The translations under genes were made by a program, and so were the position numbers. Shown in pieces: positions 14,790-19,500 of a DNA stretch of 64,000 bases. The DNA comes from Bryobacteraceae bacterium (GTDB lineage Bacteria > Acidobacteriota > Terriglobia > Bryobacterales > Bryobacteraceae): positions 16,872-80,871 of the forward strand of contig JBEKMJ010000029.1 in NCBI GenBank assembly GCA_050008575.1, read 5' to 3'. The notes below the pieces were generated by a model that was not told the origin of the DNA, ran no database searches, and saw nothing but the letters and a program-made list of their open reading frames with translations. The first letter of the stretch is position 1; every line of letters begins with the position of its first letter.

Positions 14790-15045
14790 GGTTCCGTAAT
14801 CCACGGCGAACCCCTTCGATATCGTCAGCCAATCCGCGCCCCTCGATCCCGCGTCTATCGTGCAGCCAACCACGCCGCGGGCGCCGGCAGAGTAGCGCCT
14901 TTGTTGGCGCGCCTGTGCGCCTTCGCCGTATCCCAGCGCGATGGGCAGCGTGTCGAACAGCGCGGCCACCGTGGTCATCATGACGGGTCGGAGGCGCAGC
15001 ATGCAGCATGCAGCCCGAGTAGATGGCTCCGAACGGCGGCTTGCC
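14790..15045 (-). pseudogene. Decayed 3'-terminal fragment of an RND permease gene (displaced gene end)
   Basis: Translation '[33 protein letters not shown]' matches '[33 protein letters not shown]' of the intact pump at 16532-19630. A 7-nt duplication at 15001-15014 and downstream indels break the frame. The lower boundary is approximate. Confidence 0.75.
14904..15045. repeat. Direct-repeat copy 1 of the RND 3' region (partner at 16694-16828)
   Basis: Hand alignment gives about 124 of 135 aligned nt identical, plus one 7-nt insertion. Confidence 0.85.
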
Positions 15046-15068
15046 TGCGGGCCGGCCTCCCCTGCAAG

Positions 15069-15097
15069 TTGACTAAAACTTGAGCTATAGGTAAAAT
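15069..15097 (+). promoter_or_regulatory. Near-consensus sigma70-type promoter (TTGACT-N17-TAAAAT) for the three-gene cassette
   Basis: TTGACT at 15069-15074 and TAAAAT at 15092-15097. The inverted repeat CAAGTT/AACTTG (15065-15070 and 15077-15082) straddles the -35. Confidence 0.5.
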
Positions 15098-15123
15098 TCT
15101 AATGGTGGGTTGCGGCGACGCGA

Positions 15124-15576
15124 ATGCCATATTCGGTAGCCACGATCAGCGGTGTTCCACGCACCCGTCGTGGCATTGGATTTCTTGAGTCCGCGGACAA
15201 TGGCCGGGTTAACGCCAAGCGATATTTCGACAAGCTCAAGGAGAAGACCGCGCGAGACGTGCGCGGCAGGTTCGACTACTGGTTGGCGGGAGGCCTATTC
15301 GACAAGTACTTTCACGGCTGGCCGAACGACAGGGAACATAAACATTGCTTCGTATTCAAGTGGAAGCAAGCGGGAACCCATCATCGTTTCTACGGTTTCT
15401 TGTGTAACCCTATGGAGTCGAAAGATCCGCCTTTCCAGGTCTGTATCCTCGTATCCCACGCACAAAAGAACACGGAAGAGACGGACCCTTCAGAGTTGAA
15501 TACAGTGAACGAGTTGAGAATTAAGAAAGAAGTCGTGAAGGCCGTGATGGCGGCATTTCCGGACATTGACGAATAG
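15124..15576 (+). CDS. Gp49/HigB-like (RelE/ParE superfamily) putative toxin, enlarged variant
   Basis: 'HRFYGFLCNP...FQVCILVSHAQKNTEETDPSELNTVNELR' fits the Gp49-like core pattern (R-x-aromatic, hydrophobic strand, K-x-x-x-x-T/P, E-hydrophobic-x-x-hydrophobic). An XRE antitoxin-like gene lies immediately downstream. AT-richer than the flanks. Confidence 0.65.
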   Translation: MPYSVATISGVPRTRRGIGFLESADNGRVNAKRYFDKLKEKTARDVRGRFDYWLAGGLFDKYFHGWPNDREHKHCFVFKWKQAGTHHRFYGFLCNPMESKDPPFQVCILVSHAQKNTEETDPSELNTVNELRIKKEVVKAVMAAFPDIDE

Positions 15577-15585
15577 GAGAACCGT

Positions 15586-16098
15586 ATGCCTAACGAATTG
15601 CATTGGACCGAAGTGGAGCCCAAGGCCTTTGCGCACAGCATGGCTTTCGGTTTCATCGCCCAGATTGAAAAAAGATTAGAGGATCTGGGTCTCAGCCAAT
15701 CCGAATTGGCGCGTAGGCTAGCCGTCTCGGAGGGCGCCGTGTCCAAGGTCCTGAACAATCCTCAGAATCTTACGCTGGAAACAATTGCCAAGTATACGCG
15801 CGCGCTTCAGACAAAAGCGGCAATCGTCGCGTACGACGATAATGATCGGACGAACAGGAACGGGCCAGTGTTGCCGGAGATCTTCAATATTTGTTGGGAG
15901 CGCGCCGGAAAGCCCCGCGACATGTGGTCTCTGGAGGCGGTTCCAAGGAGACCCTCGCGCGCTATGCGAAGCCGAGCGTATCGGAAATTGAGGCACGCGA
16001 CGAGACAGTGGCGGGGATCCCATGAATTCGGCGCACACCCTGGTTCGCAGAGCTCGGGTATTGGGGCGATGGGTCGCGCAACCTGGTCGCAGAAATAA
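15586..16098 (+). CDS. XRE-family helix-turn-helix protein (putative antitoxin/regulator)
   Basis: 'LGLSQSELARRLAVSEGAVSKVLNNPQNLTLETIAKYTRAL' is a classic HTH_XRE segment. AGGAG lies 6 nt upstream of the ATG. The basic C-terminal ~70 aa look unusual, so a frameshift is possible. Confidence 0.75.
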   Translation: MPNELHWTEVEPKAFAHSMAFGFIAQIEKRLEDLGLSQSELARRLAVSEGAVSKVLNNPQNLTLETIAKYTRALQTKAAIVAYDDNDRTNRNGPVLPEIFNICWERAGKPRDMWSLEAVPRRPSRAMRSRAYRKLRHATRQWRGSHEFGAHPGSQSSGIGAMGRATWSQK

Positions 16099-16110
16099 AG
16101 GAGCACTGAA

Positions 16111-16467
16111 GTGTCTAGAAAAGCACGAGACACAGCGGAAGCTGCGTCGCCGATTAATCTTAAGGAGATCGCGATCGAAGAACCTGAAGACGGGGTGTTC
16201 GACGCGTATTCAAATGTCGTCCAACTGAATTGGACCTCCAATGATGTCACACTTCGCTTCGGACAGCTCATTCAAGTTCCAAACCCCGAATCGCCGAAGT
16301 GGGGGGATCAATACGGAACACTTCTGGAGCGAGCCGCCGTCACTCTGCCTTGGCACCAGGCCAAGGTTCTCCGGGACATGCTGGACGGCATTATCCGGAA
16401 CTATGAGCAGATCAACGGCGAGCTTAAGCCGCTAAAGTTGCCAGCCCCTCCCGCTCCCATCGCGTAA
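16111..16467 (+). CDS. DUF3467-like protein (function unknown)
   Basis: 'DAYSNVVQLNWTSNDVTLRFGQ' and 'RAAVTLPWHQAKVLRDMLDGIIRNYEQINGEL' match my recollection of the DUF3467 pattern (YsN..h.hs..EF.hDF ... P.hAK.L...L...I..YE..fG.I). AAAGGAG lies 7 nt before the GTG start. Confidence 0.7.
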   Translation: MSRKARDTAEAASPINLKEIAIEEPEDGVFDAYSNVVQLNWTSNDVTLRFGQLIQVPNPESPKWGDQYGTLLERAAVTLPWHQAKVLRDMLDGIIRNYEQINGELKPLKLPAPPAPIA

Positions 16468-16531
16468 CACGATCCGGTCGATCATCCGATTGGATTGTAC
16501 GCGCAGGTTTCGCGCCACTCGCCAACTTGAC

Positions 16532-19500
16532 CTATCCGGCAGCTAACTCGCGAGGCCGTGCCGGCGACTCAGCGCCCTTACTGCCCCTCAGCCAGGTCTG
16601 GACCCTCTCCATGTACAGATAGATCACCGGCGTAATATACAGCGTCAGTAACTGCGACACCAGCAGCCCGCCGACCACGGCCAGGCCCAGCGGCTGGCGC
16701 GCCTCCGCGCCTTCGCCGTAGCCCAGCGCGATGGGCAGCGTGCCGAACAGCGCCGCCACGGTGGTCATCATGATGGGGCGGAAGCGCAGCATGCAGCCCG
16801 AGTAGATGGCTTCGAACGGCGGCTTGCCCTCCACGCGCTGCTGTTCCAGCGCGAAGTCGATCATCATGATGGCGTTCTTCTTCACCACGCCGAACAACAT
16901 GATCAGGCCGACGAAAGCGTAGAGGTCCAGCTCCTTGTGAAACAGGCGCAGCGTGAGCAGCGCGCCGAACACCGCCGAGGGCAGCCCCGAAAGAATCGTG
17001 ACGGGATGGATGAAGCTCTCGTACAGAATGCCCAACACGATGTAGATCACCAGAATGGCCACGATCAACAGGATGGACAGCCCCTGGAACGACTGCTGGA
17101 ATTCCTTCACGGTGCCTTGGAAGTTGACGCTGATAGTGGGCGGCACGCGCAGCGATTGTACGGTGTCTTTCACCTGCTGGGCGGCATTGCCGAGCGAGAA
17201 ACCGGGCGCCAGGTTGAACGATATAGTCACGGCCGGCAATTGTCCGAAGTGGTTGACGGTCAGGGGACCGACGCCGCGCGATAGCTTCACCACGGAATCG
17301 AGGGGCACCAGCGGTCCCTGCGTGGAGCGCAGATAGATTTTGGAAAGGCCTTCCGGCGTGCGTTGATAGCGCGGCTCCACCTGCATGATGACGGCGTACT
17401 GATTGGCCGGCGAATAAATCGTGGAGACTTGCCGGTCGCCATACGCGGCATAGAGGGCATCCTCAATCTGCTGCGGGGAGAGGCCCAGCGCCACGGCGCG
17501 ATCCCGGTCGATGTCCACGTTCACCTGCGGGCTGGCGATCTGCAGGTCGGAATTCACGTCCAGAAAGCCCGGCAGCGCGCGCATCTTGTCGACCACCGGA
17601 TCGACCCAAGCGTAAATCTCCTTCAAATTCGGGCTCTGCATGGTCATCTGATACGCGCTGGTCGAGAATTGTCCGCTCACCGTGATGGGCGGCGGATTCT
17701 GGAGGAACACCATGATGCCGGGAACGGCGCCCACCTGGGGCCGCACCCTGGCCAGGATCTGGTCGGCGGTAAACTTCCGTTGGGAGCGCGGCTTCAGTGT
17801 GGCGAACATGCCCACCTGGTTGCCGCCCATCATGAAGGCGCCGGTGTTCTCCACATCCGGATCGCGCTGTACGATATCCGCGACGGCGCGCAGGTGCTTG
17901 GCCATCGATTCAAAAGAAATATCCTGGCCCGAAAGAGCGAACCCGAAGAAAAACCCGCTGTCCTGGCTGGGGATGAACCCGGTGGGCATGCCGAAGAACA
18001 TATAAACGGTTCCGCCCAGCAGCAGGAGGCCGGCCATCAGCGTGGCGAATTGATGGCGCAACACGCCTTTCAGGGTGTAATCGTAGCCCGACGCCAAAGC
18101 CTGGAACCCGGACTCAAACGCGCCGTACATGCGGCCGTGGCGGCCGGTATGGCTATATCGCAGGAAACGGCTGCCCAGCATGGGCGTGAGACTCAGAGAC
18201 ACGAAACCGGAAATCAGAATGGCGATGGCGATGGTGACGGCGAACTCGTGCAGCAGCCGTCCCACGATGCCGCCCATGAAGAGGATGGGAATGAAGACGG
18301 CCACCAGCGAGACGGTCATGGAAATAATGGTGAAACCGATTTCCTTGGACGCCAGCAGCGCGGCTTCCATGCGCCCTTTACCCATCTCCATGTAGCGGAC
18401 GATATTTTCGAGCATCACGATCGCATCGTCGACCACGAACCCCACCGACAGGGTCAGCGCCATCAGGGAGAGATAATTCAGGCTGTAGCCGAGCAGATAC
18501 ATGGCGGCGAACGTACCGACGATGGAGAGGGGCACGGCCACACCCGGAATCAGGGTGGCGCTCAGGTTGCGCAGGAAAATGAAGATGACCATCACCACCA
18601 GGCAGACGGTGAGCATGAGCGTGTATTCCACGTCGTCGATCGAACCGCGGATGGATTCCGCCGCATCGCCGCCGATTTCGAGCTTGATGGCGGGCGGCAG
18701 TTCGCTTCGAAACTGCGGCAACAACGCTTTGACGCTGTTCACCACTTCCACCGTGTTGGTGCCGGGTTGGCGCTGCACGGCGAGCATGGTGCTTTTCTTG
18801 CCGTTGAACCAGGCACCGGTCTTGTCGTTCTCGAAGCCGTCGATGACGGTACCGAGCTGCTCCAGCCGTATGGGCACACCGTTCTTATAAGCGACGATGA
18901 TAGGCCGGTAAGCGGCGGCGCGGGTCAACTCGCCGCTCGATTGCACGGTGAAAGCCTGCTTCTCGCCGTACAATTTGCCGGTGGGCAGGTTCACGTTGCT
19001 GCGCTGGATGGCCTGCATCACTTCGTCGAAACCGACGCCGCGCGCGGCCAGTTCGTCGGGATTCAATTGCACCCGCACGGCAAACTTCTGGCCGCCGAAC
19101 ACCTGCACACGCGAAACGCCGGAGACCATGGACATGCGCTCGGCCAGCAGCGTTTCCGCGTACTCGTCCACGGTGTAGGCCGGCAGGGTATCGGAACTCA
19201 GGGAGAGGAACAGCACCGGTTGTTCGGCCGGATTGGCTTTTTCGTAGGAAGGCGGATGCGGCATGTTGGCCGGCAGCACGCCCTCGGCCTTGGCAATGGC
19301 GGACTGGATATCCTGCGCGGCCGCGTCGATATTGCGCGCGAGGGTGAATTGCACGTTGATCTGTGTAGTTCCCTGGGAGTTCGTGGAACTCATGTTTTGC
19401 ACGCCGGCGATGGTGGAAAACTCGCGCTCGAGCGGCGTGGCCACCGCCGCGGCCATGGTCTCCGGGTTGGCGCCCGGAAGCGAAGCGTTGACCTGAATGG

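Follow-up and report, generated by a model that had tools for sequence, protein, structure and literature searches.

How can a group of small genes of foreign composition settle behind a conserved transport gene without a recombinase of their own, and leave that gene intact? The question is raised by a window of 64,000 nucleotides from a Bryobacteraceae bacterium (Acidobacteriota; contig JBEKMJ010000029.1), in which the minus-strand gene of an RND efflux permease, the pump gene, is followed by three plus-strand genes, hereafter the cassette, and then by a second, damaged copy of the pump gene end. A first-pass annotation, made from the sequence alone, took this for the geometry left when an integrative element targets the 3' end of a gene and supplies a replacement end, with the repeat acting as attL/attR. 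Our analysis supports the replacement end and the displaced old end, since the cassette is foreign in composition, relatives have the empty site, the old end still lies on its native flank, and sister lineages hold complete displaced ends. It did not show an integrase origin or a role of the repeat as attachment sites. We read the locus, with about even confidence, as the decayed footprint of an insertion by gene-end displacement.

The duplicated pump gene end and the cassette between its copies

The pump gene is the second of an operon that begins with the gene of a membrane-fusion protein (MFP), at about 19645-20964, where the MFP domains were found. This upstream gene and the full-length AcrB/AcrD/AcrF-type domain of the permease (Table 1) place it among the RND permeases of the HAE1 type, and its orthologues at 84-94% identity keep the order DinB-MFP-RND. 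Part of its 3' region recurs beyond the cassette as a direct repeat, much as the first-pass annotation had aligned it by hand. The two copies are identical at 124 of 134 aligned positions (92.5%), and the sole gap in the alignment is a 7-nt duplication in the lower copy (ATGCAGC, twice in a row, at 15001-15014), which breaks the frame as had been stated. Within the repeat, a 26-nt core was counted exactly two times in the window and not once in 100 shuffles. The translations of both copies are those given at first reading, and Pfam ACR_tran matches the lower copy over residues 2-33 only. The last codons of the intact gene, below the upper copy, are read as the incoming or 'replacement' allele of the gene end.

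Below position 14904, the first reading had seen a dead gene end still homologous to the pump C-terminus. A tblastn search with the window's own pump C-terminus against 14300-15200 gave only a weak match below 14905 (E=0.17), which seemed to leave no homology there, but this self-comparison was overturned by alignment to a relative with a complete displaced end, L193 (loci are numbered with the prefix L). Window positions 15045-14905 correspond to L193 11368-11501; a clean deletion of 113 nt relative to L193 follows, and then 14906-14858, which encodes a tail of 17 codons, '..KGATLPAPAAWLAAR'. The deletion joins this old tail straight onto the repeat. Next comes native DNA, 82.6% identical to L201 11233-11391 and 83% identical to L193 11799-11956, and the whole of 15045-14646 is collinear with the lower copy of L193 and its downstream DNA. 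On these alignments the lower copy is a complete but damaged old gene end, still on its native flank.

The arrangement is not an assembly artefact, because 20 contigs from different assemblies and sources (JGI, ENA, NCBI, Logan) share it over 14300-17000 at 99.9-100% identity. The population behind it is Bryobacteraceae (Acidobacteriota) of peat-type metagenomes. A diversity-generating retroelement was also considered and rejected: the 10 mismatches between the copies are of mixed kinds and not adenine-specific, no reverse transcriptase domain was found, and the repeats of relatives are 0.65 kb long with differences biased towards synonymous ones.

The cassette is compositionally foreign. The GC content of 15046-16531 is 0.547, against 0.627 for the window, and is the lowest of 626 stretches of the same size (z=-3.0); GC at third codon positions is 0.60-0.65, against 0.74-0.83 in the neighbouring genes, and the tetranucleotide distance reaches z=+3.1. 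This agrees with the AT-richer segment described at first reading, as does the near-consensus promoter found ahead of the plus-strand genes, TTGACT-17-TAAAAT, which is the only promoter-like match in 14400-16900 and is conserved in two related loci, L101 and L104. The third gene is convergent with the pump gene, and 64 nt separate their stop codons. Searches of the window's cassette with Pfam and NCBIfam profiles detected no recombinase domain, in line with the earlier statement that no integrase or recombinase is present.

Table 1. Features of the pump gene, the cassette and the displaced gene end, in window positions
Feature	Position	Strand	Evidence
RND (HAE1-type) efflux permease gene, intact, 1032 aa	16532..19630	-	Pfam ACR_tran over 1-1020 of 1021, 1036 bits
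Upper repeat copy, within the intact pump gene, codons ~935-978	16695..16828	-	Repeat alignment
Last 54 codons and stop of the intact pump gene, ending '..RPRELAAG' and stop	16532..16694	-	Counterpart in the lower copy largely deleted
DUF3467 protein, cassette gene 3, 118 aa	16111..16467	+	Pfam PF11950 E=5.8e-9
XRE/Cro-type helix-turn-helix (HTH) protein, cassette gene 2, 170 aa	15586..16098	+	Pfam HTH_3 E=4.5e-9
Open reading frame 1 (ORF1), cassette gene 1, 150 aa, conserved family	15124..15576	+	No Pfam, NCBIfam or PADLOC match
Promoter-like TTGACT-17-TAAAAT of the cassette operon, in a short inverted repeat (AAGTT..AACTT)	15069..15097	+	10/12 consensus positions
Lower repeat copy, a surviving piece of the displaced old gene end	14905..15045	-	Repeat alignment, L193 alignment
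Tail of the displaced old end, '..KGATLPAPAAWLAAR', stop at 14855-14857	14855..14906	-	L193 lower-copy alignment, frame 2 translation, blastn
Native DNA downstream of the original pump end, with a decayed small ORF	14646..14854	-	Alignments to L201, L193

As to the cassette genes themselves, a HigBA-type toxin-antitoxin identity for the ORF1/XRE pair was rejected: there is no family match and no RelE-like fold in the PDB, and the HTH protein scores 30.6 bits against HigA TIGR02607, under the cutoff of 47.7. PADLOC recognised no system in the pair, and tblastn gave no plasmid or phage match. The AlphaFold2 model of ORF1 has a pLDDT of 90, no PDB match with E<0.08, and one BFVD match, to an unnamed viral protein. 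Elsewhere in the window, 34291-37423 is the second lowest-GC stretch (about 0.55). It encodes, on the minus strand, a UvrA-like double ABC ATPase of 753 aa with a match to the UvrA DNA-binding domain, adjoined by a 248-aa fragment of an ISL3-family transposase at 36677-37423, and is possibly another acquired segment.

Empty and occupied sites in relatives

The first-pass annotation had proposed a comparison with the orthologous locus in relatives, and among the approximately 11 orthologous loci that we inspected, L201/L202 have the empty site. Their pump gene (84% identical) is a single gene with no cassette and no duplicate, in an order of DinB, MFP, RND, native downstream DNA, pyrroloquinoline quinone dehydrogenase, carbamoyltransferase and glutaminyl-tRNA synthetase. 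From 134 nt past the RND stop, the DNA is 82.6% identical to window 14805-14646. No duplicate pump end is found in L195, L199 and L200 either. Among species-representative genomes, the best pump relatives are 71% identical, none shares synteny or cassette or supplied an empty site, and only L023 was informative.

Seven loci, counting the window, are occupied, and they carry four unrelated types of cargo. The ORF1-XRE-DUF3467 type is represented in the window, in L104 (pump 82% identical) and in L101 (pump 92% identical, same synteny). The repeat of L104 spans 265 nt at 99.2% identity, and its lower copy is an ORF with its own stop and a diverged tail of 17 codons. In L101 the lower copy is almost gone, and the pump homology that is kept lies further 5' than the 15045 limit and abuts the cassette promoter. 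The second type pairs a NUDIX protein with a 362-aa cytidine-deaminase-domain protein in L193/L194 (pump 94%; displaced end of 666 nt, 91.9% identical) or with an unannotated 225-aa protein in L198 (pump 94%; displaced end of 655 nt, 96.5% identical). L197 (pump 89%) has a 454-aa protein of unknown family and a displaced end of 627 nt (93.5% identical). The fourth cargo, a Uma2-family endonuclease, is in L023, a metagenome-assembled genome of Acidiferrales (pump 69%); its displaced end measures 293 nt (92.2% identical), and after it comes a PIN-domain gene preceded by a small ORF, a VapBC-like pair.

In L193, L197 and L198, where the duplication is complete, it runs to the pump stop codon, and the proteins encoded by the displaced ends, each with its own stop, are 114 aa long in L104, 209-213 aa in L193, 204 aa in L197 and 208 aa in L198. 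In addition, L198 carries a third, partial end of 117 nt (6272-6388), which shares 95.7% identity with the intact gene and 88.7% with the first displaced end, and which lies upstream of a pair formed by an 88-aa and a PIN gene. Such a second displaced piece indicates serial displacement at the site. In all seven occupied loci, whatever the cargo type, no gene for an integrase or other recombinase was detected. These loci show the pump gene end to be a cargo hotspot with cargo turnover.

Several observations concern the downstream side of the site. Just past the pump end, L201 (about 11120-11356) encodes a small protein of about 78 aa ('..EYGTTEDLKAAMREYGLSEDS..'), the window counterpart of which (14646-14854) is interrupted by frameshifts and an indel of about 86 nt. 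L198, L199 and L023 have small antitoxin-like or PIN genes at the equivalent position. Further on, the downstream DNA of L201 runs nearly straight into a homologue of window 12398-12632. The intervening 12633-14645, with a LolA-like gene (13461-14354/14471, minus strand) and a 168-aa ORF (12946-13452), is missing from L201, hence there is a second indel of about 2 kb beside the cassette.

Two alleles of the gene end and the manner of the crossover

Where both ends are well preserved, their differences are those of working genes. In L193 the differences between upper and lower copies are distributed over the three codon positions as 11:4:38, with 39 synonymous and 10 non-synonymous changes; in L197 there are 25 and 8. 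The new and old ends encode near-identical proteins (10/220 codons differ in L193, 8/209 in L197), the changes polarised to the lower copy are equally synonymous-biased (22:5 and 16:4, respectively), and no frameshift occurs over the 627-660 nt of the displaced ends. Because of this bias and the lack of frameshifts, the two ends must have diverged as parts of working genes and been joined afterwards, since a duplicate drifting in place would differ. Identical tracts of about 160-350 nt stand amid clustered differences between the copies of L197, L198 and L104. Gene conversion or homologous recombination has evidently acted between the copies, which is why these group by genome.

The ends of the proteins also fall into two types. 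The intact genes of the three ORF1-cassette loci end in '..ELA[AIV]G' and a stop, and the displaced ends of the window, L104, L193 and L197 in '..ELAAR' and a stop. The G-type tail was tried as a marker of the cassette and failed: it is native in the empty-site relative L201, whose pump protein (P0125) has it without the cassette. Hence, it marks the type of the donor allele and not the cassette.

An origin in place was weighed against this background. The lower copy would then stem from a tandem duplication of the gene end with a later gene insertion, or be what remains of a mostly deleted tandem paralogue. Tandem RND paralogues do occur in distant genomes (L055, L080, L203), and in every genome the nearest relative of one copy is the other, a similarity that the gene-conversion tracts account for. 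However, no relative among the orthologous loci has two tandem complete pump paralogues here, the very finding that the first-pass annotation had named as fatal to its reading, and the empty site holds a single gene. The synonymous bias on both lineages and the intact ORFs are unlike a drifting duplicate, and the cassette is compositionally foreign. We consider an origin in place largely refuted already, and very improbable.

Two further observations bear on the duplicated ends. In each of four lineages, upper and lower copies share about 92% identity (L193 91.9, L197 93.5, L023 92.2, window 92.5%), which could be a coincidence, a divergence ceiling for recombination, or a balance between divergence and conversion. 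The protein hits P0209-P0328 include many pump-tail ORFs of 199-213 aa that start with 'MPATIS..FQGTVKEF' (pump residues from about 826 to the end) and have diverse C-terminal tails, several of them on contigs of 44-499 kb (P0258, P0273, P0297, P0317). Judged by sequence, these may come from displacement in many further lineages, or possibly represent a free-standing gene for transmembrane segments (TM) 8-12. The displaced ends of about 200 aa (TM8-12) may be kept by selection and not be debris: they are intact and synonymous-biased, and ORFs of the same form are many.

The mechanism that we propose starts from the arrival of a unit made of a copy of the pump 3' end, the 'arm', and 1.5 kb of cargo (ORF1, the XRE repressor and the DUF3467 gene). 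In relatives, the arm measures about 0.65 kb (0.63-0.67), from about codon 814-825 to the stop. The unit would recombine with the resident RND permease gene; the body of the resident gene would be joined to the incoming end, leaving the pump intact, and the resident end would be shunted downstream of the cargo with its native flank still attached. Later decay of the old end in the window would have removed its 5' part, added the 7-nt duplication and deleted 113 nt internally. The limits of the repeat in the window are those of decay or gene conversion and not of attachment sites, because the homology in L101 reaches further 5' and the duplications of L193, L197 and L198 are 627-666 nt long. 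The view of the repeat as the attL/attR of an integrase element is not supported.

The geometry itself demands that DNA made of a pump end and cargo recombined with the resident gene in such a way as to retain both ends. For the crossover itself, we hold, with slightly less than even confidence, that homologous recombination on the long arm was responsible, either as a Campbell-type insertion of a circle or as an import through flanking homology, neither of which needs a cassette-borne recombinase; an integrase-free model of this kind has been put forward for Rhs genes (PMC2935791). Homology-driven insertion is favoured because no recombinase is found at any of the loci, the arms are 0.63-0.67 kb long and 92-96% identical to the resident gene, and gene conversion is visible. 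The level of identity holds in every lineage including L023, the arm of which is only 75% identical to the Bryobacteraceae arms. The first-pass annotation had left a choice between a reduced integrase element and recombination with a paralogous pump gene. With seven loci devoid of an integrase, the former is only one of two live mechanisms. The latter comes nearer to the homology-driven route, with an orthologous allele, about 92% identical, as the source of the imported end.

Several points weigh against homology-driven gene-end displacement. The sample of orthologous loci is small. Three independent displaced ends begin close together: relative to L193/L198, the 5' limit is shifted by +10 nt in L023 and by +30 nt in L197, and all fall in an interval of about 34 nt in a gene of 3.1 kb (P~4e-4 if uniform). 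One of these loci belongs to another order. Such clustering is not expected from homologous recombination by itself, although a single origin of the arm, or selection on its limit, would reconcile the two. Homologues of ORF1-XRE occur in integrase-type elements at tRNA genes, with an intact integrase in L108 and a remnant in L115. No circular or excised form was encountered, and no read-level search was made. Finally, the original 5' limit of the arm has been lost to decay for the cassette type of the window. A sliding comparison of pump similarity revealed no decisive discontinuity at the 5' limit of the arm, where gene conversion blurs the signal.

The search for the cassette elsewhere, which had been suggested at first reading, returned 88 homologues of ORF1, all unannotated. 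In metagenome loci long enough to show the neighbours, an XRE gene nearly always comes after ORF1, and in most cases a small third gene comes next; the DUF3467 protein has no similarity to the 88-aa third gene of the other ORF1-XRE modules. In L108-L111 the module adjoins a tyrosine integrase (intact in L108) in an 8.5-kb element at tRNA-Met, in L115 it is part of a 4.6-kb element that has 51-bp repeats, retains a degraded integrase remnant and sits at the 3' end of tRNA-Val, and in L182 it abuts tRNA-Pro. Since it is found in elements at tRNA genes, the module is typical cargo of integrative elements.

These elements have features of their own. The one at tRNA-Met (L108 1719-10298; also in L109-L111 and L192) encodes an HK97-type capsid, an S78 protease, an HTH_17 protein and the tyrosine integrase, and no other phage structural genes are visible in L108. 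Perfect repeats of 40 bp bound it; on the right, the repeat consists of the first 40 nt of tRNA-Met, unlike the usual 3' part. The element looks like a capsid-encoding satellite. In L173 (6334-13605) a module of ORF1, XRE and a small gene is flanked by two radical-SAM/SPASM paralogues; the locus also has an IS1-like fragment and perfect direct repeats of 32 bp at a distance of 6 kb.

Such elements suggest another explanation, which we regard as a minority possibility of some weight: the cassette would be what is left of a site-specific integrative element, or a hitch-hiker on one, itself without a recombinase. The tyrosine-type integrase of the element would recognise a conserved site near codon 814-825 and would have been lost, as in cis-mobilizable elements (CIMEs), or act in trans from a helper element. 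The attP would carry the rest of the pump gene and restore it, as e14 and phage 21 do at icd; the geometry is the same as that of e14 at icd-icdC (PMC13626634). Under this explanation one would understand the 5' limits within about 34 nt across three cargo types and two orders, the duplication running exactly to the stop codon with an exact restoration of the gene, the tandem series of displaced ends in L198, the modules beside an integrase at tRNA-Met (L108) or a degraded one at tRNA-Val (L115), and the foreign composition of the cassette. However, the 7 occupied loci and their 4 cargo types are free of recombinases, and one cargo is a single gene of 0.65 kb. Neither the orthologous loci nor 80 more distant pump loci showed an integrase-bearing element at the site, and when viral contigs were scanned with the arm, only distant pump genes in host flanks came up and no phage carrier. 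The limits, moreover, differ by 10-30 nt between types and do not coincide; their clustering is compatible with a crossover core and is not a proof of it.

The same clustering bears on homology-facilitated illegitimate recombination, in which a linear fragment of the pump 3' part and cargo would be anchored by homology at one side and joined illegitimately inside the recipient gene at the other. This process yields exactly the observed geometry with neither circle nor recombinase, suits two copies that are different functional alleles, and has been proposed for displaced effector/immunity arrays of the type VI secretion system (PMC5361080). Yet its joints are expected to be scattered along the gene, and no shared motif or microhomology is evident at the junctions of cargo and arm. 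Because the 5' limits cluster, we deem it improbable.

A consequence that we infer for the window is that its cassette is effectively locked in: recombination between the two remaining copies would leave the pump truncated, with an end that lacks TM12, and losing the cassette would thus be paid for with the pump. More tentatively, and with some doubt, the 0.65 kb of the pump 3' end might be the 'homing arm' of an undescribed kind of recombinase-less cassette, made of the pump end and 0.65-2 kb of cargo, inserting at a preferred point, about codon 814-825, with restoration of the gene and a downstream shift of the old end, and with at least 4 cargo types in two orders of Acidobacteriota. The movement of such cassettes would depend either on the homologous recombination of the host, acting through circles that arise between the two ends, or on a recombinase encoded elsewhere.

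Significance and relation to known systems

Taken alone, the copy in the window is a decayed example. The interesting part is the hotspot, with its four cargo types, clustered limits, intact displaced ends and absence of recombinases. Accessory genes usually enter chromosomes on integrase-bearing elements or at hotspots that their core-gene neighbours define. At this locus, the long conserved landing sequence belongs to a core transport gene, and small cargoes ride behind a spare gene end: a putative endonuclease of the Uma2 family, deaminase and NUDIX proteins, an XRE-regulated three-gene module, and the 225-aa and 454-aa proteins of unknown family. If general, this would be a cheap way of spreading accessory genes in Acidobacteriota, a dominant and genetically intractable soil phylum. 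It would also provide a natural lock-in, in which deletion of the cargo breaks the pump once the displaced end has decayed, and a testable case of insertion that is site-preferring without an integrase. For annotation, it accounts for short ORFs of the 'partial RND permease' kind that follow intact pump genes.

Among integrase-based systems, the 15-kb prophage e14 of E. coli K-12 has its own integrase and SOS-induced excision, and sits in the 3' end of icd, leaving icdC (PMC13626634). There, as at the pump gene and with phage 21, a conserved protein gene is entered at its 3' end by an insert that supplies a near-synonymous replacement end, the original end persists at the far side as a C-terminal pseudogene (icdC), and excision would recombine the two ends. 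The pump locus has the duplicated 3' target repeat, the intact target with a displaced native end and the unoccupied site in relatives that characterise this type of insertion. It differs in that the insert of 1.5 kb has no site-specific recombinase, which is also lacking in the six other occupied loci, that the duplicated end of relatives is about 0.65 kb, and that four unrelated small cargoes share the site.

CIMEs are att-flanked, integrase-less derivatives of integrative elements that are mobilizable in cis, and are found at the 3' end of fda in Streptococcus thermophilus. They coexist with cognate integrase-bearing integrative conjugative or integrative mobilizable elements at the same site, and their att repeats are short. 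The cassette resembles them as a small recombinase-less insert between direct repeats derived from a gene 3' end, with tandem accretion possible. Unlike for CIMEs, no cognate integrase-bearing element was seen in the orthologous loci, the 80 distant pump loci or the viral contigs, and the repeats are hundreds of nt long.

Parallels without an integrase exist too. In Vibrio cholerae, effector-immunity modules of the type VI secretion system are displaced by homology-facilitated illegitimate recombination (PMC5361080). There, too, incoming DNA anchored by upstream homology shifts older genes downstream without an integrase, but the joints are not reported to cluster at one site, and the old effector is largely lost instead of being kept as an intact end.

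In the model of C-terminal displacement in Rhs proteins, homologous recombination takes place with a circular intermediate made of a conserved piece, a new end and the intervening genes, and no integrase is involved (PMC2935791). Arrays of Rhs and of contact-dependent inhibition (CDI) systems likewise consist of an intact gene followed by dissociated 3' fragments that keep a conserved piece, with no recombinase. Fragments of this type number one each in the window, L104, L193, L197 and L023, and two in L198, where displacement was serial. The differences are that the new end in Rhs is a toxic C-terminus with an immunity gene, whereas the two pump ends encode nearly the same protein and the payload is in the trailing genes, and that Rhs core fragments vary in length whereas the limits at the pump gene cluster. 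The closest integrase-based parallel to this locus is the insertion of e14 or phage 21 at icd, and its closest integrase-free parallel is the C-terminal displacement of Rhs/CDI systems.

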